Part shown: one piece after another, positions 4,404-26,386 of the stretch
Position numbering within the stretch: the first letter of the stretch is position 1
Layout: each line of letters opens with the position of its first letter
Source: Desulfobulbus propionicus DSM 2032
GTDB lineage: Bacteria; Desulfobacterota; Desulfobulbia; Desulfobulbales; Desulfobulbaceae
NCBI RefSeq assembly: GCF_000186885.1
Contig: NC_014972.1
Span: 3,540,001-3,572,000 of the forward strand
DNA length: 32,000 nt
Direction of reading: 5' to 3'
Notes under the pieces: generated by a model
Seen by the model: the letters and a program-made list of their open reading frames with translations, nothing else
Told to the model about the DNA's origin: nothing
The model's database searches: none
Program-made: the position numbers and the translations under genes

Positions 4404-5543
4404 TTAGGATTTACATTCAAACACGGCAATCAATTGCTGCACCGCCGCCACCGCCGGCAGGGAACCGCCTGCCACACTGCGCTCGATGTCCTTGATGATC
4501 CGGTTCACCCCCGGGTGCTTGGCAAAGAGCGAGCGCAGGTGGTCATCGACCATGTCGTGCACCCACTTGATGCTTTGCTCCCGACGATGCCGCTCAAACA
4601 CGCCGGATTTGCTCGTAATCTCGCGGTATTTGCCGATCACCTTCCAGATTGCATCGATGCCCTCGTTGGCCATGGCCGAACAGGTGTAGGCGTGCGAGAT
4701 CCAGCCCTCGGTGGAGGGTTGCAGGTAATGCAGGGCGCGTTCATATTCCGCCCGTGCCGTTTCGGCGATCAGCTTGTTCTTGCCGTCGGCCTTGTTGATC
4801 ACCAGGGCGTCGGCCAGTTCCATGATGCCCTTCTTGATCCCTTGGAGTTCATCACCGGCTCCGGCCAGCATCAAGAGTAGAAAAAAATCGACCATGGAAC
4901 GCACCGTGGTCTCGCTCTGGCCCACGCCCACGGTCTCGATCAGCACCACGTCAAAACCCGCCGCCTCGCAAACCAGCATGGTCTCGCGGGTCTTGCGCGC
5001 CACCCCGCCCAGGGTGGACCCGGCGGGCGAAGGGCGAATGAAGCAGCGCTCGTCCCGGCTCAACCGCTCCATGCGGGTCTTGTCGCCGAGGATCGAGCCG
5101 CCGGAGATGGAGCTGGACGGATCCACCGCCAGGACCGCCACCTTATGGCCCTGCTCGATCAGATGGCAGCCAAAGGTTTCGATAAAGGTGGACTTGCCCA
5201 CCCCCGGCACGCCGGTGATGCCCACCCGGATGGAGTTGCCGGTGAACGGCAGGAGGATTTTCAGCACTTCCTGCGCTTTTTCGATATGCTGGGCCGCATT
5301 GGATTCCACCAGGGTGATGGCACGGCCCAGCACGGCCCTATCTCCCTGGCGCACACCGTCGGCGTATTCCTGGGCACTCAGTTGCGGCCGGCGGTGACGG
5401 ACGGCGGGTTTGACCACCTGTTCCGTGCCCTTGTAGCTGCTGATACCGTCATGTCCGGCTTCCACCCCATCCATCACCCGGCAGGCAAAGCCCTCGCAGT
5501 TACCCTCCGGTGCCCATTCCGGCATTTTGGTGTTCAATGTCAT
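4404..5543 (-). CDS. meaB: Methylmalonyl-CoA mutase-associated G-protein chaperone MeaB/ArgK (379 aa)
   Basis: A P-loop GVPGVGKST is present, together with DRAVLGRAITLVES, VLAVDPSSSISGGSILGDKTRM and INKADG (NKxD). The gene lies immediately downstream of mutAB. AGGAGG lies upstream of ATG 5541-5543. Confidence 0.9.
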   Translation of the reverse strand: MTLNTKMPEWAPEGNCEGFACRVMDGVEAGHDGISSYKGTEQVVKPAVRHRRPQLSAQEYADGVRQGDRAVLGRAITLVESNAAQHIEKAQEVLKILLPFTGNSIRVGITGVPGVGKSTFIETFGCHLIEQGHKVAVLAVDPSSSISGGSILGDKTRMERLSRDERCFIRPSPAGSTLGGVARKTRETMLVCEAAGFDVVLIETVGVGQSETTVRSMVDFFLLLMLAGAGDELQGIKKGIMELADALVINKADGKNKLIAETARAEYERALHYLQPSTEGWISHAYTCSAMANEGIDAIWKVIGKYREITSKSGVFERHRREQSIKWVHDMVDDHLRSLFAKHPGVNRIIKDIERSVAGGSLPAVAAVQQLIAVFECKS

Positions 5544-5625: not shown

Positions 5626-7802
<2,177 letters not shown>

Positions 7803-7806
<4 letters not shown>

Positions 7807-9938
7807 GCGATCACCTCCAGGTGTTGTTGCAGTTTGGTGAGCAGTTCCAGGGCATTGACGCGGACGTGCAGGAACTCGTCCACCCCGGCCTCCTTGAAGG
7901 CATCGACAAGGTCTTTGGGAAAACCAGCGAGGATGATCATCATGCCGGGATCAGCGGCCTTGAGCTCCTGGGCTAATGGAGGAACAATCTCCGGGTAAGT
8001 GGCATCGGTGGAGCAGATGACCACCGCCTTGGCTCCGGAGGCCAGCGTCGCCTGGACGGCTTCGTCCACGGTGGCGAACCCGTTGTTGCCGATGGTCTCA
8101 AAGGCACCGACATTGAAAAAGGCGGTGGAGAAATCGGCCCGGGCCTTGTGCTGGGGGATGGGTCCCATGTTGGCAAGGAACAGTTTGGGAGTGGCACCGG
8201 TGCGGGCGGTAAAGGCCTCGGTGGCCCGGCGGATCTTCTCAAAGGGCTCGGCGCCGCGATGGATGTTGAGCGGGGTGATAGCAATCTCCCGGCTATCGCC
8301 CTGCAAGGCTCCGGCCACCATGCCCAGGGTGGCCCCCTGGCGGAAGGCGGCAATGGCCCGGGCCATCAGTTCGCCATCGAGAGTGGAAAGTCGATCGCGC
8401 AACGCGGCCAGCGCCGCGCCGCAGGCCTGGCTGTCAACGGTCCCGGCATGGGCCTTGACCGCCTGGATGCGTTTGTCTTGGAATCCCCGGTGGTCGAAGG
8501 GCTCGGCCTCCAGCCGTTTTTCCGCGAGGTTGGGGTACATGTTGGTGCCGACGAAACGGTCGGTGCGGGTGGCGACGTTCTTGGCCCGCTGGGCGGCGGT
8601 CTGGGCCACGGCTCCCTGGGGCATGCCCTGCTCAAGGGCCGCCAGCATGCCGCCGGCCGCCTCGATATCCTGGAACAGCTTCCAGGCTTTTTCCGCCAAC
8701 TGGGCAGTGATTTTCTCCACATACCAGCAACCGCCGGCCGGATCGACCACCTTGTCGAAATGGCCTTCTTCCTTGAGCACGATGTGGACATTGCGGGCGA
8801 TACGGCGGGAAAACTCGTTGGGGGTGCGGAAGATCTCATCAAAGGGGCTGACGTGCATGCTATCGACACCGCCGGCAATACCGGAGAAGGCCTCGGTGGA
8901 GACGCGCAGCATGTTGACCCAGGGATCGACCTCGGTCTTGTTCCAGGTGGCGGTGCGGGCATGGATAACCATTTTCTGCGCCTCAACATCGCCGTCAAAG
9001 GAGGCGACCACCTGCGACCAGGCCAGGCGTGCGGCGCGGAACTTGGCAATCTCCATGAAGAAGTCATTGCCGATGGCAAACTCAAAACTCATCCGCGCGG
9101 CGATGTCGTTGATGGCCAGTCCACGCTCCTGCAGAGCGCGGATATAGGCCACACCGGTTGCCAGGGCAAAGGCAATGTCCTGGACCGCGTTGCCGCCGCT
9201 GTTGCGGTACCCATCGGTGCCCACAGTGATGGTGCGCAGCTTGGGCGCATGGGCCATGGCCCAGCGGGTGAGTTGTGCCATGCGGTCATAGGCAGTGGCC
9301 AGGGAGGAGCTGAGTGTACCCTCCACCGCCAGTACGCCCAGGGGATCAACCACCAGCGATCCCTGGAGATCGGCCAGCGATTGCCCCTGTTCCTCAACCA
9401 GGGCGGCGATGAGGGCTGCAGGGGCAATCCCCAAAGGTCCACAGGTGAGACGACAGGGTTGGGCGGTCAGGTCGATCCCGGCGAAGGCGGCTTTGGCATC
9501 CGTCAAGCTGGAGAGCGACAACCCCTTTTTGCCGACCAAATCCGCCGGGGCCTGCTCAGGATCCAGGCCACGTAGGCTGGCGCAGTCGAGTACGATATTG
9601 AGGCTGTTCTGGCCACGACTGAGATCGTATTGCGCGGCCTGGTTGAACGCCTCGGCATCGGCCAGGGTGATCTCCTGGGCAATGTTCCAGGCATTGATCC
9701 TGTGGCCTGAAGCGCTCGTGCCGCGCATGTAGGGCGCCTCCCCCGGCAGGCTATCCACCTGGGGCAGGCCGTCAAGATCGTGGACAAAGTACATCGGCTG
9801 GATGTCGATACCTTCGTAACTTTTCTTGACCAGGGTCTTGTCAAAGGGTTTGCCCTTCAACTCCTTTTCCACCGCCGCCAGCCACTCGGCATGGGTATTG
9901 GCCGGAAAATCCTTGAGAATGTCCAATGCTGTTCCCAT
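7803..9938 (-). CDS. mutA: Methylmalonyl-CoA mutase small (beta) subunit (711 aa)
   Basis: The mutase fold is present ([34 protein letters not shown]) but the C-terminal domain lacks a DxHxxG His-ligand motif, as expected for MutA. The start is taken at MGTALDIL (ATG 9936-9938) with AAGGAG 7 nt upstream. The 25 codons upstream in the ORF track overlap the terminator. Confidence 0.85.
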
Positions 9939-9960
9939 TTTTACTCCTTGTTGCTTGGTT

Positions 9961-9993
9961 AACAAAAAACCCCCGGCCCTTTCGGACCAGGGG
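9961..9993 (-). terminator. Intrinsic terminator / expression platform of the proximal cobalamin riboswitch
   Basis: The minus-strand RNA reads CCCCUGGUCC-GAAA-GGGCCGGGGG (10 bp including two U-G pairs that only work on this strand), followed by UUUUUUGUU. The element ends 22 nt before the mutA RBS. Confidence 0.75.
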
Positions 9994-10091
9994 TTCCCCT
10001 GTCTCTGCACCATCGATGACGCGCAGGACTTGCGCCTGCACAGGTGCTGGGATCAACAACGGGAACCACGGCCGCTTACGCTGATCAAAAA

Positions 10092-10248
10092 ATCGGCAGG
10101 TCTTCTGGCTTTCGGATCAGCCTACTCTCCGCGTCTTCCCGATCAAATCGATCAGTGACATGCTACGGATTTCGTCCCCGATTACAGCGGCCGGACCGCA
10201 ACGGACTTGCACCGTTTTCCCTGTTAGGCCATAAAAAATGGCACCGAT
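10092..10248 (-). promoter_or_regulatory. Cobalamin riboswitch aptamer, proximal copy
   Basis: The minus-strand RNA reads AUCGGUGCC...ACAGGGAAAACGGUGCAAGUCCGUUGCGGUCCGGCCGCUGUAAUCGGGGACGAA...CACUGAUCG...GAUCGGGAAGACGCGG...AGCCAGAAGACCUGCCGAU. It carries the conserved core and the B12 box (AGCCAGAAGACCUGCC). It is closed by P1 AUCGGU/GCCGAU. Confidence 0.9.
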
Positions 10249-10330
10249 TTTTTTGTACAAACAATGAGTTAAAACTGTACCGCCTGACTACATCGGACCA
10301 ACATCTCCCCAATATTTTCCACGACAAAAC

Positions 10331-10375
10331 GGCAAAAAAAAAATCCCCGGATCAATATAAAATTGATCCGGGGAT
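10331..10375 (-). terminator. Intrinsic terminator of the distal cobalamin riboswitch
   Basis: A perfect 14-bp stem pairs ATCCCCGGATCAAT (10343-10356) with ATTGATCCGGGGAT (10362-10375) around a 5-nt loop. On the minus strand a run of 10 U follows (A10 at 10334-10343 on the + strand). Confidence 0.85.
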
Positions 10376-10438
10376 GCCCTGGTTTATCCACGTATCGGTG
10401 CCCTCCCTGGTCCAAGGGGAAAGCGCTAGTCATCTTTT

Positions 10439-10587
10439 CAGGCAGGTCTTCTGACTTCCGGATCAACCTACTTGCTGCGCCTTCCCAACCTTTTGGTCAG
10501 TGACATCATGCAGCGTTCGTCCCCGGATACAGCGGCGGGCCCGTCCCCGATTCTCACGGGGTTCCCTTTTCATCCTTGCGGAGCCTG
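10439..10587 (-). promoter_or_regulatory. Cobalamin riboswitch aptamer, distal copy
   Basis: The minus-strand RNA reads CAGGCUCCGCAAGGAUGAAAAGGGAACCCCGUGAGAAUCGGGGACGGGCCCGCCGCUGUAUCCGGGGACGAA...CACUGACC...GGUUGGGAAGGCGC...AGUCAGAAGACCUGCCUG. The conserved core, the B12 box and P1 CAGGC/GCCUG are all present. Confidence 0.9.
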
Positions 10588-10829
10588 AAAATGTATAATC
10601 CTTACAACAGCAAACGCGTTCACCTAAACGGTTTGCATTTCTTTTGTCAAGTGCAAAAAAAGGAGCTGTTTTGTTCAGCATGCCTACGCCAACCCGCGCC
10701 CAAGACAGAAAACCGAGCCTGGCCATGGCTTCTCGCCAGGACAAGGTGCAGAGGAACATACCTGGCAATTATTCTGTGACCGGGCTGTGGAACTCCCAAA
10801 CAAACCATATCAGACAAAGGGGAATACGT

Positions 10830-14417: not shown

Positions 14418-15206
14418 ATGGGCAGATTGACCCTCTGGTGGCGGATGGAGGACAACGAGGCGCCGTCGCTGCTCTCGCGGCTCCTGGCCTTTGCCCTGGT
14501 CCTCCTCCTGCTCTCGGCACTGTTCTTTTTTTCCTTCAGCCAGTTGCAGTATGGGTGGAACTGGACTGCGGTCTGGCAGTATCGGCAGAAATTTCTGCAC
14601 GGCTGGATGACCACCCTACTGATTTCCGTCGCGGCGCTTGGCCTCAGCCTGCTGATTAGTGTCTTTTTCGCCCTCGCCCGCCGCTCCCGCCTGTTGCCGC
14701 TGCGCTATCTGGCCATGCTCTATATCGAAGGAGTGCGCGGCACCCCGCTTCTGGTGCAGATTCTGGTCTTTTTTTACGTGGTGGCGGATGCCTTTGGCAT
14801 CAATAATCGCTATGTTGTCGGCATTCTCACCCTGGCCTTCTTTGCCGGGGCCTATCTGAGCGAGATTATTCGGGCGGGCATCGAGAGTATCGGTGAATCG
14901 CAAATAGAATCCGCACGCGCCATTGGCCTGAGCCCCTTGCAGACCTACCGTTTTGTCATCCTCCCACAGGTGGTGCGGCGGATTTTGCCGCCCCTAGCCG
15001 GTCAATTCGCCTCGCTGGTCAAAGACTCCTCGCTGCTTTCGATCATTGCCGTCAGTGAATTCACCCTCAACGCCCAGGAGGTCAACGCCTTTACCTATAG
15101 CACGCTGGAAAGCTATCTGCCGCTGGCCGTTGGCTATTTGGTGTTGACCCTCCCCATTTCCCTGTTCAGCCGCCACCTGGAACAGAAATTTCGCTATGCA
15201 ACTTAG
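14418..15206 (+). CDS. Polar amino-acid ABC transporter permease (262 aa)
   Basis: Multiple TM segments are present. An EAA-type loop is visible ([30 protein letters not shown]), along with YIEGVRGTPLLVQI, which is typical of the His/Glu/Gln/Arg permease family. Confidence 0.9.
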   Translation: MGRLTLWWRMEDNEAPSLLSRLLAFALVLLLLSALFFFSFSQLQYGWNWTAVWQYRQKFLHGWMTTLLISVAALGLSLLISVFFALARRSRLLPLRYLAMLYIEGVRGTPLLVQILVFFYVVADAFGINNRYVVGILTLAFFAGAYLSEIIRAGIESIGESQIESARAIGLSPLQTYRFVILPQVVRRILPPLAGQFASLVKDSSLLSIIAVSEFTLNAQEVNAFTYSTLESYLPLAVGYLVLTLPISLFSRHLEQKFRYAT

Positions 15207-15930
15207 CCTGACGCATCTCAGTAAATCCTATAATGGCCACCGGGTGTTGGACGATATTTCCATTGAACTGCCGGATGTGCATGCCCTGGTCATCATTGGC
15301 CCCTCGGGAGGTGGCAAGACAACCCTGCTGCGCACGATTGCCGGCCTGGAGCGACCTGATTGCGGACAAATATGCATCAACGGCCAACCGCTGCTCTTTG
15401 ATGCGGCAAGCCTACTCCTCCATCGTCGCAGCATCGGCACGGTCTTTCAGGCCTTCAACCTCTTTCCGCACCTGAGTGCGCTTGACAATATCATGCTGCC
15501 GCTTGAGCAGGCGCAGGGATATACGCACGAGCAGGCCCTGGCAACGGCCCAGGCCATGCTGCACCGGTTTCAACTGACAGCCCATGCCGACAAGAAACCG
15601 GCCCAGTTATCCGGCGGCCAGCAACAGCGGGTGGCCATTGCCCGCGCCATCGCCATCAAACCACGGTTTCTGCTCTTCGACGAACCGACCTCGGCCCTTG
15701 ACCCGGAGATAACCTCAGAGGTGCTTGATATTATCAAGGAATTGCAAGAGGAGGGGCGCGATTTGCTGCTGATCACCCATCACATGGGATTTGCCCGCAC
15801 CGCAGCGGACCATTGTCTCTTTGTTGCAGAGGGAAAAATCAGGGAAAGCGGCAGTGTCGAGCGCCTCTTTGACCACCCGCAAAGCGAACAACTGCAGCAG
15901 TTTTTGGGAAGGGTCACCCGCTATAATTAA
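15196..15930 (+). CDS. Polar amino-acid ABC transporter ATP-binding protein (244 aa)
   Basis: Motifs: Walker A GPSGGGKTT, ABC signature LSGGQQQRVAIARA, Walker B LLFDEPTSALD, and the H-loop ITHHMGFA. The gene overlaps the permease end by 11 nt. Confidence 0.9.
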   Translation: MQLSLTHLSKSYNGHRVLDDISIELPDVHALVIIGPSGGGKTTLLRTIAGLERPDCGQICINGQPLLFDAASLLLHRRSIGTVFQAFNLFPHLSALDNIMLPLEQAQGYTHEQALATAQAMLHRFQLTAHADKKPAQLSGGQQQRVAIARAIAIKPRFLLFDEPTSALDPEITSEVLDIIKELQEEGRDLLLITHHMGFARTAADHCLFVAEGKIRESGSVERLFDHPQSEQLQQFLGRVTRYN

Positions 15931-20040: not shown

Positions 20041-21048
20041 CTACTCCTCCTTGACGCGGCACTGCGCAAAGCGCACCAGGCCCAGCCGCTGCTGCCGCCG
20101 CTTCCCCAGCATGGCCCCGCCTACCAGCAGCAGGGTACCGCCGAGACCGAGCCCGGCCCAGACCATGTAACCAGCCACATGGCTGGTCCACTCCGGCCGG
20201 TTACGGAAGATGATCATCGGCAGGGTGGCGACATGGAGGGCCTGATGTTCCGGGTCTTCGACCCTGACCACATAGAGCAGCTTATCGTAGTGGAGCTGCT
20301 TAGAGCGGTCGTCAAAGGGAATGACTGTGAAGCGGCCGGAGGCATCGGTACGATAGCTCCGGCGCCAGCCGCTGCCCTCGGCAATCGCCTCGACCATGGC
20401 CCCGGCCAGGGGACGCCCCTGATAGCGTACCTCCATGCCATACTCCTCGTGCGGGCGCTGGAAACCGCCCCCCATGCGGTACATGGCCGGTGAACGGGCT
20501 GAACCGATCTCCAGGGCGATGGCGGGATCCTCGAAGAAGAAGGCCGGGGCCGATCCGGGACGTCCGTCATGCTTGTAATGGCCGACCATCAGCTTGGGAT
20601 AGAGGTGGAGCCGTTGCCGACCACCATTCCCATCAAGCTGAAAATGACCACCCACCAGATAGCGGCCATTGAGGTTGAGGTCCTCAGGCAGGACGATTTC
20701 CCGCATGTCCGGGCTTACCGTTGTTGCCTTGCGGACTCCGTCCGGATCGCAGATGACCACCGTACCCGCCGGCAGCAGGGCCTCGGCCTCCTGCCCCATG
20801 GCGATGAAGGGATCGGCCAATACGCCCCGCACCAGTTCCAGGTGTTTGGGTTTCTCCTGGACACTCTGTCGCTGTTCGCGCTCCTCTCGGATCTGTCGCC
20901 AGTTGAGGTTGTCCATCGCAAAACGGTAGACGTGGAGGCCTTCCTGTTGCAGTTGCCAATAGAGGAGTTTGGGCGCATCTGCGCCAGAGCCAATTTGGGG
21001 AACAAACCCTACTATTATCAAGAGGAAAAAACGTAGCGGCCCCTTCAT
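20041..21048 (-). CDS. Periplasmic protein with signal peptide and C-terminal TM anchor (335 aa); function unknown
   Basis: From ATG 21046-21048 the protein starts with the signal peptide MKGPLRFFLLIIVGFVPQIGSGA. A beta-rich body includes a carboxypeptidase-regulatory/transthyretin-like stretch (GRPLAGAMVEAIAEGSGWRRSYRTDASGRFTV). The C-terminal TM segment is VWAGLGLGGTLLLVGGAML, followed by a basic tail. The ATG overlaps the CobN-like stop (ATGA). Confidence 0.65.
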   Translation of the reverse strand: MKGPLRFFLLIIVGFVPQIGSGADAPKLLYWQLQQEGLHVYRFAMDNLNWRQIREEREQRQSVQEKPKHLELVRGVLADPFIAMGQEAEALLPAGTVVICDPDGVRKATTVSPDMREIVLPEDLNLNGRYLVGGHFQLDGNGGRQRLHLYPKLMVGHYKHDGRPGSAPAFFFEDPAIALEIGSARSPAMYRMGGGFQRPHEEYGMEVRYQGRPLAGAMVEAIAEGSGWRRSYRTDASGRFTVIPFDDRSKQLHYDKLLYVVRVEDPEHQALHVATLPMIIFRNRPEWTSHVAGYMVWAGLGLGGTLLLVGGAMLGKRRQQRLGLVRFAQCRVKEE

Positions 21049-24000
21049 TGTCCCAGCCTCTCCAGACGCCATACCGGTCGCCACTTCTCGACATCAGCAG
21101 CGGTCATGACCTCAACCTTGGAGCCCTGGAACTCCTCGCGTACCTCGCCGATACTTTCCTCCATGTCACCCTCGATTAACAGCGCCGCCTCCTGCACTGC
21201 GGCCAGCCGTTCGGCATCGGCCTGCCACAGGCCCCGGCTCTGGGCTTCAAGCAGACGGCGGGTGATCTCCTCCAGGCCGTAGGGGTTTTCGCGGCGCAGC
21301 CATTCTAGATTGGTCTGATCCTGAATGTAGGTGGTCACCACCCGGTCAAAGACCCAACCGGCCACGGTTTCGGTGGTGGCACTCCATTTGAACAGGGTGT
21401 TGACCCGGCCGGCCACCTCGCCCGCGCCCTGGTAGCCCTCCTGTTGGCGCTGATCGATCCAGTGCGGGTTGAGCAGTTTGGCCATGGTCGTGGCCTCCAG
21501 ATCTTCCTGAAAGTCCCGCACCGAATGATCGGCCTCGCTGTTGTTGTCGGCAAAGTAGATCCGGGCCCGTTTGCCGGTCAAGGCCTTGGCCGCCACCGAC
21601 ATGCCGCCGAGACAACCGGTGTAGCAACTACAGTCGGTGGCATCGTACTCCGGCGAGGCTTGGCGCATATAGCTCACCTCCACATCTTTGAGGCGGGCGG
21701 CAAAGAGGCGATGCGCCGCCACGCCCTGAACACGTTCAAACCCACTGATCCGGTCCGAACCGTAGGCAAAGCCACTCCAGTTGATATAGGTCTCGGCCAA
21801 ATCGGCCTCATCGTTCCAGGCTGAAGCATCCAAAGCCAGACCAACCCCGGTGCCGCTGGCCCCAGGAGCCGAAGAAAAGACCCGGAAGCTGGCCATTCGC
21901 CGCAGTTCTTCGCCGCTGTGCTGCTCACCCAGTTCCCGGCGTAACTCGTCGAGTTGTTCCAGGGTGTGTTTGCGGATGAAATTCTGTTCAATCGGTTCAG
22001 GCAGATCCCCGGCCATGACGGCGGCCTCGTCGAGCAGGTCAGCAAAGTGCGGCACCATGTCGCGGAGGATGGAACTGGTCTGGATGACCACATCCACCCG
22101 CGGCCGGAGCACACCGGGGCCGTCGGTGCGATCCAGTTGCAGTACGTGCAAGGGGATGGGTTCAACTCCGCAGACCCGGCCGTTTGCTTGCCAGAGAGGC
22201 CGCATACCCATCAGGGCCAGGATCTGGCAGAAGACCTCGCCGTCGGACTTGAAGGCATCGATGCTCCACAGGCTGATGCCCACGCTCTCGGGGAAACGCC
22301 CCTCGTCCTCGAGGTATTTGCGCAAAAGATTATCCGAGAGCGCCTGTCCCACCTCCCAGGCGGCCCGCGTGGGGAGGGCGGCAACATCGCTGGTGAAAAA
22401 ATTGCGCCCCGTGGGAAGGGCCTCGGTCTTGCCCAGGGCCAGGGAGCCACAGAGGCCCGGCTCGATGTACTCGCCGTCCAGGGCGCGAAGCAGTTGACCA
22501 ATCTCACGGGTGCAAAGGCCGATGCGGCCCCCCACATCCTGGCACCAATCCAGGAGTCGGCGAAACGGTTGCTGGCCGGGCTCCGCTTTGCAGCCGTCCT
22601 TTGTCGTTGTCAGCAACCATTCGAGCACGGCCACGGCATCGTCAAACGCATTGCCCGAGGACGGCTGATGATGGGCAGCGATCTCCGCCAACAGGGGCAG
22701 GCCGTCCACTGGTTTGCCAAGGATGGTGGCCAACAGAGTGGCAATGCCGTGGCTGTCCGGGGCTGTTCCCAACAGATGTGGGCCGGTGGCAGAAAGGACG
22801 CGTCGGCTCCGGCCAATCCGGCGGGAGAGCAGCTCCATTGCCCGATCAAAATCCTCCTCCCCTTCCAGACCGCCCATTTGCTGCATCAGCGGCTGCATTC
22901 GTGCCCGCAGCACCTGCTGCCGCTGGTTTTCCCCGTGCAGTTTTGCCTTCTGGTACTGGTCAAGCAGGTCTTCCAACTCCAGGGTCATGGCATCCAGCGG
23001 CGCCGGCCGACGAACCGGGCAGAGATGATCGACCATCACCGCCCTGGCCCGCCGCTTGGCCATCAGCCCTTCGCCCGGCACATCCATGATGTAGAGGTAG
23101 ATGTTGGGCAGATCGCCCAGGCTTATCTCCGGAAAACAGGCTGCCGAGAGTCCGACCTGCTTGCCCGGCAAAAATTCGAGCGCCCCATGGGCACCGAAAT
23201 GGAGCACCGCATCCGAGGTGGCACGGATATAGGCGTAGGTGGCCAACCAGTGTGGTGGTGGCGAGAGGTGCGGATCATGGAGGATGCGGCAGACCTCGCC
23301 GTTGCACTTGGCTCCGTAGCAGCCGCGCTTGGGCTGGACAATGATCTGGAGATGACCAAAGCGCAGGCCGGTCACCAACAAAGTGGCCTGGCCGTCTTGC
23401 CGGTACACCATGCCCTCGCCGGGAAAGCGGCCCCAGTCGTTTTCAACCCGCTGCCTGGCCGCCTCGGGCATATCTGTTAGTAATTGCAGGTATTCCTCCG
23501 CATCCACCCGGTGCAGCACCCCACCCTTGGCCACGATCTCGTCGGTGGTGGTCCAACGGAACTCGGAGATGGCCTTGCGTGCGAGCAGCAGATCGAGCAG
23601 TGCTTTGCCGTCCTCCGGGGCATTGCCGGTATCGTAGCCCGCCTCGCGCAGGGCGGTGATCAGGGCCGCCAGACTGGCAAAGGTATCCAGACCGGCGGCC
23701 AGCCCCAGGGTGGCTTCCACGCCCTTGCAGGGATTGTTGTGCAGCACAATGGTCAGCCGCTTTTCATCATTGTCGAGCAGGCGTAGGCGGATCCAGCGAT
23801 GCAGCCGCAGGCAGAGCCGCTCGATCTGTTCCGGCAGAGGGATATATCGTCGCAGCAACAGCCCGGTGACGGGATCGGTTTCCCCTCTGGTGGCAGCCAC
23901 GGCGGTGGGCTCGATCACTCCGGCCATCTCCGGCTGGGTGAGGCTGAAAACCATGGATGCGGCGCCCGCCCCCGCGCCGGTGACATCCTGGCGCCACTGC

Positions 24001-24821
24001 TCGGGCGTTTGCTGGTAGAGACGCAGCAGTTGCACCACCGGCAGATTCAGTTCCTTCAGGATGGTGACATCCTCGGGCTGGGTGAGAAGGCGGCCGGCAA
24101 GAAGGTTGAGCAGCAACTGCGGCGCTGCGCCCCGCAGATACTCCAGCCAGGGATACCGTTGCTCCGGGGGCAGGCTGCTGTCAGTCATGCCCTCGGTGAC
24201 CACACACAGCGGCGTTAGGGCCTGGCATTCCAGGGCCTGGATGAGGGCGTCGATTTCAGCGTGGTTGTTCTCGACAATCTGTCCGTAATAACAGAGCAAC
24301 GCCACCAGGGGCCGCTTGACGGTGTCGCTGATGCGGCTGCACTGCCAGCGCAGATAGTCGCTGGTATCAAAGAAAAACGTATCGTGTTCAGCATGATAGA
24401 TGCCGCAGGTCCGTACCTGCTCCGGCGGATCGATGTGGTGATCCGTTCCCGTGGCGCAAGCGACGAGAAAATGGATCCCATTGACAAAGTTGGCCAGCGA
24501 AACCTGCTCCAGATAGGCGGAAAATCGCACGGCCTGCTTCGCAGTGAAAGTGGTGAAGCCGGGTTGCCGCTGCGGCCCGAGATCGATGCGGTGCGGCAGT
24601 GAGCTTGCCGCCTCCAGCAGCGCCTCATACTGCGGTAAATCGCGAAACAACTGGACAATGCAGAGATCAGCCCAACCGCTTGCCATCAGCTTAATTGCCT
24701 CCCCGGCCTTGACATGCTGGGCATAAAAGCGCAGCTCAACCCCCTCGGCGAGCAACAGGGCGTATGCACGGGACCAAGTCTGGGTCTGGAACATCTGTCC
24801 GTGGACAAAGAGAATCTTCAT
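21045..24821 (-). CDS. CobN/ChlH/BchH-family large chelatase-like protein (1258 aa)
   Basis: Size and collinear blocks are typical of CobN. These include HFGAHGALEFLPGKQ, NIYLYIMDVPGEGLMAKRRARAVMVDHL, ALDGEYIEPGLCGSL.GK.EALPTGRNFF, SLWSIDAFKSDGE and RVDVVIQTSSILRD. No signal peptide is present. The start is taken at MKILFVHG (ATG 24819-24821, AGGAGG upstream), overlapping the upstream stop (ATGA). Confidence 0.9.
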   Translation of the reverse strand: MKILFVHGQMFQTQTWSRAYALLLAEGVELRFYAQHVKAGEAIKLMASGWADLCIVQLFRDLPQYEALLEAASSLPHRIDLGPQRQPGFTTFTAKQAVRFSAYLEQVSLANFVNGIHFLVACATGTDHHIDPPEQVRTCGIYHAEHDTFFFDTSDYLRWQCSRISDTVKRPLVALLCYYGQIVENNHAEIDALIQALECQALTPLCVVTEGMTDSSLPPEQRYPWLEYLRGAAPQLLLNLLAGRLLTQPEDVTILKELNLPVVQLLRLYQQTPEQWRQDVTGAGAGAASMVFSLTQPEMAGVIEPTAVAATRGETDPVTGLLLRRYIPLPEQIERLCLRLHRWIRLRLLDNDEKRLTIVLHNNPCKGVEATLGLAAGLDTFASLAALITALREAGYDTGNAPEDGKALLDLLLARKAISEFRWTTTDEIVAKGGVLHRVDAEEYLQLLTDMPEAARQRVENDWGRFPGEGMVYRQDGQATLLVTGLRFGHLQIIVQPKRGCYGAKCNGEVCRILHDPHLSPPPHWLATYAYIRATSDAVLHFGAHGALEFLPGKQVGLSAACFPEISLGDLPNIYLYIMDVPGEGLMAKRRARAVMVDHLCPVRRPAPLDAMTLELEDLLDQYQKAKLHGENQRQQVLRARMQPLMQQMGGLEGEEDFDRAMELLSRRIGRSRRVLSATGPHLLGTAPDSHGIATLLATILGKPVDGLPLLAEIAAHHQPSSGNAFDDAVAVLEWLLTTTKDGCKAEPGQQPFRRLLDWCQDVGGRIGLCTREIGQLLRALDGEYIEPGLCGSLALGKTEALPTGRNFFTSDVAALPTRAAWEVGQALSDNLLRKYLEDEGRFPESVGISLWSIDAFKSDGEVFCQILALMGMRPLWQANGRVCGVEPIPLHVLQLDRTDGPGVLRPRVDVVIQTSSILRDMVPHFADLLDEAAVMAGDLPEPIEQNFIRKHTLEQLDELRRELGEQHSGEELRRMASFRVFSSAPGASGTGVGLALDASAWNDEADLAETYINWSGFAYGSDRISGFERVQGVAAHRLFAARLKDVEVSYMRQASPEYDATDCSCYTGCLGGMSVAAKALTGKRARIYFADNNSEADHSVRDFQEDLEATTMAKLLNPHWIDQRQQEGYQGAGEVAGRVNTLFKWSATTETVAGWVFDRVVTTYIQDQTNLEWLRRENPYGLEEITRRLLEAQSRGLWQADAERLAAVQEAALLIEGDMEESIGEVREEFQGSKVEVMTAADVEKWRPVWRLERLGQ

Positions 24822-26386
24822 GTCAAGCCTCCTGGTTGAGCAATGGCCCACCGGTCAAGAGGCACCTGGTGATTTGGCGAGTAGTGCCGCAACAGTGTTG
24901 GGTAATCGATTCTGTCCTGGAAGCGCTTCACCCTTGTTTTTCTGGTATCAAGGATGACGCCACCGTTTTCTCCCTGCTGAACAAGGGTTTCCTGCCAGCG
25001 TTGGTGGCCTTCCGGGGGTAACCATATCCCCGCCCCCCCGGCTGAGATCACCACCACCGCCACCTGTTCGACGGTACGGGCTCCACCAAGCAATTGGACC
25101 GCATCGGTGAATGAACGGCTGAAAATAACGACCACATCAGCACCCTCTTTGGCACAGGCCAACACCATTTCCGGGTGATAGAGCGCTCTTTCCGGCAAAA
25201 GATGAATCCTTGCAGGCCCGCAATCGCAACAGGGGAAAGGAATGGGCATTGCAACAGAGTCGCTGAAAACACCTAAAGAGAAAGGCCTCGTGTGACCATC
25301 AAACCAATAAACAGCCTTCACCGCCTCCATTGTTCGCACAAGCAGAATTTTCTGCCCCTGGGATACGCACCAATCATGTAAGTTGGCCATGTCGGCATCA
25401 TCGTAATCGTTGATCGGAAGGAGGTGGAGCGTATCGGCACCCCCCTCCGAGTTCGGGTTCGTGTTTCTGATTGGCGGGATAGCACCTGCCTGTTCAGAAC
25501 AGTGACATCGAACCTCCAACTTCCCAGGCGGAGGCAAATGGAGAAATGTTGTCAAATCATCGATCCCAGTTCTGTTGAGCGTACAGGGATGAACGTGGTC
25601 AGTACTCCTTGAAGTCAGACGCTTGAGGCGATTGCCGGAGAGCAGTTTGTGGTCCGCATTGAGGGGCAAATTAATCCGCAGCAGCTTCGAGGTTCGGGAA
25701 CATTTCTGGAGTTGCACGATTCCTTGTGGACTGACGATGGCCGAAGGGGCGTGCCGGCAATCCATGAGCAGATCCTTGCCGGTGCGGTTGCAGGCAAGGA
25801 CGAACAGCCCATTTTCCAAGGCCCTAGCTCGCCATATTTCCAAGGGATCAAGTCCCAATGGAGGCCAGTTAGCGAGCACGAGTAACAGATTGGCGCCGCG
25901 AAGAGCCGTGACTCTTGCCATGAGACTATGATACGAGTCGGAGCAGATCAGTACCCCCATCCGTCCCCAAGGGGTATCAAATGTATTGTTTTCATAGGGA
26001 TTACCAGGACAGGCCCAACGGAATTCAGCATTCATCTTCCGATAGCGACAAACAATTTCTCCTTCCGCATCAAGGACAAATGCGCTGTTGTAGAGAATGC
26101 CATTTGCCGGGTCTCGCTCTGCCATGCCAATACAAGCGTACATGCCGTAATGACGGCAGATCTTACCGACCTCCGACAGGGTTGGGCCATCAACGGCTTC
26201 GACGTAGGGTGCGACATCCCGCATGTCGGCAAAAGAATATCCGGAGATAACCATTTCAGGGGCCACAACCATCTGTACCCCTTTTTTCCCGGCCACATGG
26301 CAGAGGTCCAGCAACTGCTGCCGGTTGGCCTCGGGCTGTTTGTATTCAACGGATAGATGCATCAAACCGAACTTCAGAAAAGCCAT
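24818..26386 (-). CDS. Carbon-nitrogen hydrolase (nitrilase-superfamily) protein with a second, apparently degenerate CN-hydrolase-like domain (522 aa)
   Basis: The N-terminal domain has an intact Glu-Lys-Cys triad context: VVAPEMVISGY, CRYRKMN and GVLICSDSYH. RARALENGLFVLACNR is also present. The C-terminal ~220 aa repeat the fold pattern (PERALYHPEMVLACAKEGADVVVIFS; GGARTVEQVAVVVISA), but the nucleophile position is unclear by eye. The start is taken at ATG 26384-26386 (GGAG 6 nt upstream). Confidence 0.8.
   Translation of the reverse strand: MAFLKFGLMHLSVEYKQPEANRQQLLDLCHVAGKKGVQMVVAPEMVISGYSFADMRDVAPYVEAVDGPTLSEVGKICRHYGMYACIGMAERDPANGILYNSAFVLDAEGEIVCRYRKMNAEFRWACPGNPYENNTFDTPWGRMGVLICSDSYHSLMARVTALRGANLLLVLANWPPLGLDPLEIWRARALENGLFVLACNRTGKDLLMDCRHAPSAIVSPQGIVQLQKCSRTSKLLRINLPLNADHKLLSGNRLKRLTSRSTDHVHPCTLNRTGIDDLTTFLHLPPPGKLEVRCHCSEQAGAIPPIRNTNPNSEGGADTLHLLPINDYDDADMANLHDWCVSQGQKILLVRTMEAVKAVYWFDGHTRPFSLGVFSDSVAMPIPFPCCDCGPARIHLLPERALYHPEMVLACAKEGADVVVIFSRSFTDAVQLLGGARTVEQVAVVVISAGGAGIWLPPEGHQRWQETLVQQGENGGVILDTRKTRVKRFQDRIDYPTLLRHYSPNHQVPLDRWAIAQPGGLT

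Follow-up and report, generated by a model that had tools for sequence, protein, structure and literature searches.

Tandem cobalamin riboswitches with separate terminators in the mutA leader of Desulfobulbus propionicus

The mutA leader and its two aptamers

The stretch of DNA analyzed here (hereinafter the window) comprises 32,000 nucleotides (nt) of the genome of Desulfobulbus propionicus DSM 2032, namely positions 3,540,001 to 3,572,000 of the forward strand of contig NC_014972.1 (RefSeq assembly GCF_000186885.1). Its minus strand codes for the two subunits of methylmalonyl-CoA mutase, MutA and MutB, and the mutase chaperone MeaB (Table 1; all positions are those of the window unless stated otherwise). 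This report concerns the leader of mutA, in which an original prediction made from the sequence alone had placed two complete cobalamin (Cbl) riboswitches, each with an intrinsic terminator of its own. That central claim is supported by covariance-model matches, RNA folds, conservation in related genomes and published reporter assays.

A cmscan run with Rfam 15 over the entire window returned two matches in total, each a minus-strand match to the Cobalamin family (RF00174) that extends over positions 1–189 of the 189-position model. The upstream match, aptamer 1 (10603..10424), scores 116.6 bits (E = 7.4e-29) and the downstream match, aptamer 2 (10263..10078), scores 123.4 bits (E = 8.5e-31), values that, at a gathering score of 31.5, are far above what chance would give. 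The outcome is what had been predicted for such a check, namely two minus-strand matches, and the coordinates proposed earlier (10439–10587 and 10092–10248) lie inside them. The conserved core motifs, i.e., GGGAA, the GGUGnnAnUCC T-loop, the GCCACUG-like motif and GGGAAG, are all seen in both cmscan alignments. The B12 boxes (J6/3) quoted in the original prediction are likewise present, as AGUCAGAAGACCUGCC in riboswitch 1 (10456..10441) and as AGCCAGAAGACCUGCC in riboswitch 2 (10110..10095). In both copies, the model positions of the P6 extension, which is typical of adenosylcobalamin (AdoCbl)-selective members of the family, are matched and the corresponding stems are paired.

Both elements have appeared in the literature. 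Table S1B of Kennedy et al. (2022, mBio 13:e01121-22; PMC9600662) lists a "D. propionicus mutA-1" at 3550279–3550618 and a "mutA-2" at 3549939–3550263 of the minus strand of NC_014972.1, both drawn from RiboD; the former is identical to window positions 10618..10279 and the latter to 10263..9939. The same table gives the regulon as Despr_3086 (mutA), Despr_3085 (mutB) and Despr_3084 (meaB), the category as "corrinoid-dependent isoenzyme" and the predicted mode as "transcriptional". In that study, 38 of the 86 reporters repressed GFP on corrinoids, and 37 of those 38 had terminators. Since Table S1B likewise comprises 38 wild-type riboswitches, of which 37 are transcriptional and one is translational, its counts match the repressing reporters and place mutA-1 and mutA-2 among the repressing riboswitches. 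The sequences and the regulon are the same as those described here, whereas the tandem, its conservation and its combined response are not discussed in the main text of that paper, which mentions neither D. propionicus nor any Cbl–Cbl tandem (PMC9600662). Hence, the tandem pair is already known, in that both of its elements are in RiboD/Rfam and in the experimental literature, and it is mechanistically ordinary. The description of tandem complete riboswitches for the same ligand as uncommon, offered in the original prediction, is a fair one, though the architecture itself has also been published.

A search with MutA yielded ten loci from Desulfobulbus genomes and about ten from metagenomes. 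With only about 20 close relatives to compare, there is little power to detect covariation, and the majority of platform motifs do not vary. Of the ten genome loci, nine have two same-strand RF00174 aptamers ahead of mutA, and the tenth (L005), for which only 366 nt of upstream sequence exist, shows the proximal aptamer only. Where the metagenome loci extend 800 nt upstream, the two B12 boxes and the two U runs are likewise present. The order in all loci that reach far enough is aptamer 1, first terminator (T1), aptamer 2, second terminator (T2) and mutA. The retention of the doublet across the genus suggests that the arrangement has been selected and is not accidental.

Some of these loci display features of their own. 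In L006 (1860–2044, minus strand) and L002 (2005–2205, minus strand), a third cobalamin riboswitch lies back-to-back with the mutA leader. The divergently oriented copy in L006 has as its target a TonB-dependent receptor (Plug and β-barrel domains) and is a close paralog of riboswitch 1, down to the GGAUAAA..GGGC..AUCCCGGAUCGAU design of its terminator. No third riboswitch of this type is found in the window, whose RF00174 matches number only two. In L010, a Desulfobulbus metagenome-assembled genome, an insertion of ~190 nt (about 2260–2460) separates T2 from the mutA start and a run of N stands inside mutA; the inserted sequence could be genuine or an artifact of assembly. Finally, a metagenome MutA homolog (L020, 82% identity over residues 1–367) has a different sequence directly upstream of its start (1–53), where only 50 nt are available.

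Table 1. Features of the mutA leader and of the genes that follow it, in the order of transcription
Feature	Position in window	Strand	Remarks
Candidate −35 element TTGACA	10645..10650	−	candidate −10 TAGGTG at 10626..10621; proposed from cross-species recurrence
Riboswitch 1 aptamer ("D. propionicus mutA-1")	10424..10603	−	RF00174, 116.6 bits; B12 box 10441–10456; L5 region GGGCCCGCC 10534–10542
P13-1 hairpin	10400..10424	−	GCUUUCCC[CUUGGACCA]GGGAGGGC; −10.2 kcal/mol; alternative partner of its loop and 3′ strand: T1 5′ arm
Second small hairpin of riboswitch 1	10372..10389	−	GGAU[AAACCAGGGC]AUCC; loop GGGC complementary to L5 GCCC; 3′ strand is the T1 base
Terminator T1	10334..10375	−	perfect 14-bp stem 10375..10343, 5-nt loop, ten U; −23.8 kcal/mol
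Spacer between T1 and aptamer 2	10264..10333	−	~70 nt; contains UUGGUCCGAUG (10301..10291); length and sequence vary between species
Riboswitch 2 aptamer ("mutA-2")	10078..10263	−	RF00174, 123.4 bits; B12 box 10095–10110; L5 region GGUCCGGCC 10189–10197
P13-2 hairpin	10051..10086	−	GAUCAGCGUAAGCGG[CCGUGGUUC]CCGUUGUUGAUC; directly abuts P1 3′ strand; RNAalifold-predicted; −10.8 kcal/mol
AT2 5′ strand	10061..10073	−	GGCCG-U-GGUUCCC; overlaps P13-2 loop and 3′ strand
Stem B	10007..10047	−	GCACC/GGUGC; closes hairpin of variable sequence and length; spacer enclosed by AT2
AT2 3′ strand	9985..9998	−	GGGAACC-CC-UGGUC; overlaps T2 5′ arm
Terminator T2	9964..9995	−	12-bp stem 9995..9968, GAAA loop, U6; −23.3 kcal/mol
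mutA ribosome-binding site	9949..9944	−	AAGGAG
mutA, methylmalonyl-CoA mutase small subunit	7803..9938	−	Pfam PF01642, E = 6e-166; ATG 9938..9936
mutB, methylmalonyl-CoA mutase large B12-binding subunit	5626..7806	−	PF01642 (E = 2e-221) and PF02310 B12-binding domain
meaB, mutase G-protein chaperone	4404..5543	−	PF03308, E = 9e-110; last gene of published regulon

Terminators and expression platforms

The distal terminator, T1, is as originally described, a perfect 14-bp hairpin followed by ten U. It was found both by a terminator scan and by folding and is part of the minimum-free-energy fold. Over 17 leaders, 236 of its 238 cells are paired; one compensatory change (G-C to C-G) occurs in L017, and three leaders have U-A to A-U changes. 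For the proximal terminator, T2, the GAAA loop and U6 tail of the original prediction stand, but its stem has 12 rather than 10 bp, and the U run ends about 15 nt, not 22 nt, before the mutA ribosome-binding site. T2, too, appears in the minimum-free-energy folds; across 18 leaders, 205 of the 216 T2 cells are paired, the compensatory changes including G-C to A-U and U-G to C-G. In the window, T2 was not called by a simple consensus terminator scan despite its −23 kcal/mol hairpin and U6, probably because A-U pairs at the base of the stem consume part of the U run and thereby defeat the tail rule of the scan.

In riboswitch 2, the stretch between the aptamer and T2 offers two further pairings. 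The P13-2 hairpin has 107 of 108 cells paired in its outer stem and all 72 in its inner stem, with variation from G-U to A-U. When 18 leaders were cut short ahead of the T2 3′ arm and folded, the antiterminator helix AT2, joining 10061..10073 to 9998..9985, was part of the minimum-free-energy structure of 14; its core is paired in 125 of 126 cells and its distal part in 85 of 90. The enclosed stem B is paired in 79 of 90 cells, and its hairpin is almost missing in L014. P13-2, AT2 and T2 are mutually exclusive in folding. For a window transcript that has not yet reached the T2 3′ arm, the computed energies of the AT2 state (−42.8 kcal/mol) and of the P13-2 state (−39.9 kcal/mol) differ little, whereas with the full sequence P13-2 together with T2 wins (−57.8 kcal/mol). 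Given the near-equal energies, a ligand-stabilized P1/P13 would tip the choice toward termination, which is the logic of an OFF switch. Hence, P13-2 is the predicted anti-antiterminator of riboswitch 2, and the modeled platform is a textbook three-element OFF layout (P1, P13, AT2, T2). A pairing of GGUUCCC with GGGAACC considered as an isolated helix was set aside, since the longer AT2, of which it would form the core, accounts for it better.

The platform of riboswitch 1 is built differently. Its P13-1 hairpin is paired in 131 of 136 cells across 17 leaders, with changes from C-G to U-A and from U-A to U-G, and the P13/L13 columns of Data Set S1 of Kennedy et al. place both the P13-1 and the P13-2 hairpins (PMC9600662). 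Between P13-1 and T1 stands a second small hairpin that is invariant in 17 leaders and hence without covariation, its extended form having −5.2 kcal/mol. The same motif also precedes the terminator in three other riboswitches, namely those of exbB and cbiZ and that of the TonB-dependent receptor in L006.

Two further pairings were tried and rejected. The first was an antiterminator formed by strands of the aptamer (AUCCGGGGA or UUGAUCCGG, with 9 bp each to the T1 5′ arm), which does not look like a selected feature, since neither the changes that L003, L007 and L012 show in the aptamer nor the T1 change in L017 is matched on the other side. The second, between the riboswitch 1 loop GGACCAGGG and the T2 5′ arm, is free of mismatches in the window, L001 and L009 but not in L002, L003 and L004, and was put down to chance. 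As a separate observation, the T1 homolog of the metagenome variant L017 (about 1079–1113), whose MutA is 98% identical to that of the window, carries the double change from CCGGAUC/GAUCCGG to CCGCAUC/GAUGCGG, which keeps the terminator and weakens every candidate antiterminator pairing.

As the target enzyme needs B12, it is biologically attractive to see the two elements as ON switches, in which B12 binding prevents termination such that the mutase is made only with its cofactor present. The small hairpin of riboswitch 1 could even supply a mechanism: it overlaps 4–11 nt of the T1 5′ arm and its GGGC loop complements L5, so that ligand-stabilized kissing at this site could block T1. However, the same overlap of hairpin and terminator, and indeed the same platform design, occurs before the TonB-dependent receptor, exbB and cbiZ, all of which have classical B12-repressed functions, and the layout of riboswitch 2 is the standard OFF arrangement. 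Decisively, both D. propionicus elements are among the corrinoid-repressed reporters (PMC9600662). On account of this shared design and of the published repression we dropped the ON-switch reading, to which we accord next to no chance, in favor of OFF switches.

Proposed serial termination and what might modify it

A TTGACA hexamer followed 17–18 nt downstream by a TA-containing hexamer is conserved across the Desulfobulbus leaders, and this only upstream of aptamer 1. A consensus promoter scan makes no call on the site, owing to its weak −10 element. The −10-like box of the original prediction, ATTATACAT (10591–10599), does not hold up as the promoter: it abuts the P1 5′ strand, and what is conserved instead is the TTGACA at 10650..10645 with the hexamer downstream of it. 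Within the spacer that separates T1 from aptamer 2 (10264..10333), the consensus scan found no promoter-like site, and no conserved open reading frame (ORF) is present. The earlier statement that no ORF lies between the two copies stands to the extent that the minus-strand ORFs of at least 40 codons between or over them have only TTG starts and overlap the aptamers; the single transcript that had been drawn from it would be deduced rather than observed. The conserved TTGACA found only before aptamer 1, together with the variable spacer in which no promoter-like site was found, supports one transcript through both switches.

A division into two transcription units would require that riboswitch 2 have its own promoter in the spacer and that riboswitch 1 with T1 form a stand-alone short RNA. 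T1 is indeed very strong, with 14 bp and U10, and there is a precedent for a B12 riboswitch making a regulatory small RNA (the Listeria case cited in PMC11575231). Against this, the consensus scan identified no promoter-like site in the stretch from T1 to aptamer 2, the sequence and length of this spacer differ between species whereas the TTGACA before aptamer 1 is conserved, and the order from aptamer 1 to mutA is kept wherever there is enough sequence. We accordingly regard two separate units as very improbable and a single transcript as the better reading of the leader.

We posit, with a probability of roughly 80%, that the leader contains two independent cobalamin OFF riboswitches, arranged in series on one transcript and acting by intrinsic termination. 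Under this proposal, one promoter ~45 nt upstream of the first P1 would drive a leader of roughly 680 nt containing both riboswitches, each being an AdoCbl-type (Rfam Cobalamin) OFF switch that acts independently of the other. Corrinoid binding would close P1 and stabilize the adjacent P13 in each unit; P13 would then sequester the sequence that otherwise pairs with the 5′ arm of the terminator, allowing T1 or T2 to form and RNA polymerase to be stopped. Without ligand, the antiterminator would form and the polymerase would read through. The mutA–mutB–meaB mRNA would thus be made only if both terminators are passed, and expression would fall with the product of two occupancy terms, predicting a dose–response that is steeper and less leaky than that of one switch ("pseudo-cooperative"). 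Such a steeper and tighter response is expected of serial OFF switches from the established work on tandem thiamine pyrophosphate (TPP) riboswitches.

Several points weigh against this proposal. The first concerns the antiterminator of riboswitch 1, which is poorly defined. The candidate, AT1, would pair the P13-1 loop and 3′ strand with the T1 5′ arm, but it has two fixed mismatches, only 159 of 204 cells paired and an energy 3 kcal/mol worse than that of the P13-1 state, and the compensatory change in T1 of L017 weakens rather than preserves its pairing. Second, the partners of the kissing loops are ambiguous: an A-C mismatch interrupts the pairing of L13-1 (GGACC) with its own L5 (GCCC), L13-2 and its L5 can form no more than about 3 bp, and all candidate kissing loops are invariant and so display no covariation, with the perfect GGGC complement to L5-1 sitting in the second small hairpin. 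Both AT1 and the kissing-loop partners are therefore putative assignments. Third, the published assays took mutA-1 and mutA-2 separately, in Bacillus subtilis, with a foreign promoter and a synthetic ribosome-binding site, i.e., neither in the native tandem nor in Desulfobulbus (PMC9600662). Fourth, the single transcript is inferred from the absence of a recognizable second promoter and not from mapped RNA ends. Lastly, repression by B12 of a B12-dependent enzyme runs counter to the usual logic of B12 regulons; one possible reason for it is that more apo-mutase and MeaB would be made when the cofactor is scarce.

The loop of P13-1, UUGGACCA (10408–10416), is also complementary to GGUCC at three places in the leader: in L5-2 (10189–10197), in the segment UUGGUCCGAUG of the post-T1 spacer (10291–10301; in most species, not all) and in the T2 5′ arm (9984–9989; in some species). 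These matches come without covariation and may be due to chance.

Out of the first of these places a physical coupling of the two riboswitches can be construed, in which the P13-1 loop (UGGACC) kisses L5-2 (GGUCCG) in read-through transcripts and the first switch biases the second. The pairing of 10416..10408 with 10197..10189 extends over 6 bp, one of them G-U, as against the A-C mismatch with its own L5. Moreover, GGAC in L13-1 and GGUCC in L5-2 are kept in every leader holding them, and GGAC with GUCC is the L13–L5 pairing suggested by the B. subtilis btuF sequence. Nevertheless, the invariance of the two motifs leaves the pairing without covariation, and GGUCC recurs in the spacer and T2, five-base matches being cheap. 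The non-tandem exbB and cbiZ riboswitches share the GGAC loop and the GCCC L5, making the mismatch a trait of the family, and each element works alone in the reporter (PMC9600662). Cross-talk between the units is thus unlikely, and this form of it decidedly so, independent action remaining our preferred reading.

The relationship between the two copies was assessed by pairwise comparison, including riboswitches elsewhere in the same genome. Riboswitch 1 is 73% identical to its neighbor riboswitch 2 in the aptamer core and 50% in the platform. The corresponding values are 87% and 63% against the unlinked exbB riboswitch, and 83% and 67% against the unlinked cbiZ riboswitch. The original prediction had read the off-consensus motifs shared by the two copies, GGATCARCCTACT and CAGTGACAT, as a sign of local duplication. 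These motifs are part of the P6-extension region of the aptamer, and no recent local duplication is indicated, given that the unlinked exbB and cbiZ riboswitches resemble riboswitch 1 more than riboswitch 2 does. Instead, the pair is old, being fixed in all examined Desulfobulbus leaders with enough upstream sequence and having platforms of differing design.

Such divergence raises the question of a division of labor, in which the aptamers would be tuned to different sets of corrinoids and the tandem would be a NOR gate over cobamide types instead of a device that sharpens the dose–response. The aptamer cores are just 73% identical and their L5 loops differ (GCCCG versus UCCGG). Table S1B records D. 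propionicus as producing 5-methylbenzimidazolyl (benzimidazolyl) and p-cresolyl (phenolyl) cobamides, and Cbl riboswitches split into semiselective and promiscuous types whose selectivity is set by the aptamer (PMC9600662). On the other hand, every functional riboswitch of that study answered both Cbl and pCbl, and selectivity followed taxonomy and not the target gene, which predicts similar behavior for two elements of one genome (PMC9600662). We consider a division of labor unlikely, and it modifies the explanation by serial OFF switches rather than excluding it. Likewise, the broader notion that the doublet is more than two identical brakes, either by its aptamers reading different cobamides or by contact between the P13-1 loop (GGACC) and L5-2 (GGUCC), strikes us as doubtful. 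If either were true, the leader would compute something that a single switch cannot, and would do so for a B12-dependent enzyme.

Known tandems and neighboring genes

Tandem AdoCbl riboswitches were reported in 2006 (Sudarsan et al.), and 26 doublets are given by Sherlock et al. 2022 (PMC9481103). The "pseudo-cooperative" tandems comprise these AdoCbl doublets, the TPP doublets of Bacillus anthracis and Desulfovibrio, and cbiW-1/cbiW-2 of P. megaterium, whose riboswitches are similarly adjacent (PMC9600662). Like the D. propionicus leader, they have two full aptamers per leader, each with a terminator-type platform. The D. propionicus leader differs from them in its target, which is a B12-dependent enzyme rather than a gene for biosynthesis, transport or a B12-independent isozyme, and in its members, which are old paralogs with different platform designs. 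A cooperative tandem of the glycine type also has two aptamers for the same ligand side by side, but these share one platform. This is not what is found here, where P1, P13 and a terminator are present separately for each aptamer, with the 14-bp terminator and the ~70-nt spacer intervening.

As to the target, the mutA Cbl riboswitch of Veillonella parvula likewise stands before methylmalonyl-CoA mutase genes and confers repression by corrinoids; unlike the doublet described here, it is treated as single and comes from a Negativicute (PMC9600662). As this riboswitch has been characterized as a repressor, B12 control of the mutase is not new. A study of Xylanibacter ruminicola found no riboswitch near its mutAB genes, the regulon survey of 2013 lists no B12-dependent enzymes under Cbl control, and Rodionov 2004 describes tandem THI elements and no control of the mutase.

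Beyond the regulon itself, the region upstream of the leader contains a 118-codon ORF with no Pfam match, a VF530 protein and a ParA-like ATPase. Elsewhere, the window holds the genes for an ABC transporter permease and ATPase pair at 14418–15930 on the plus strand and an ORF of 1268 codons at 21045–24851 on the minus strand.

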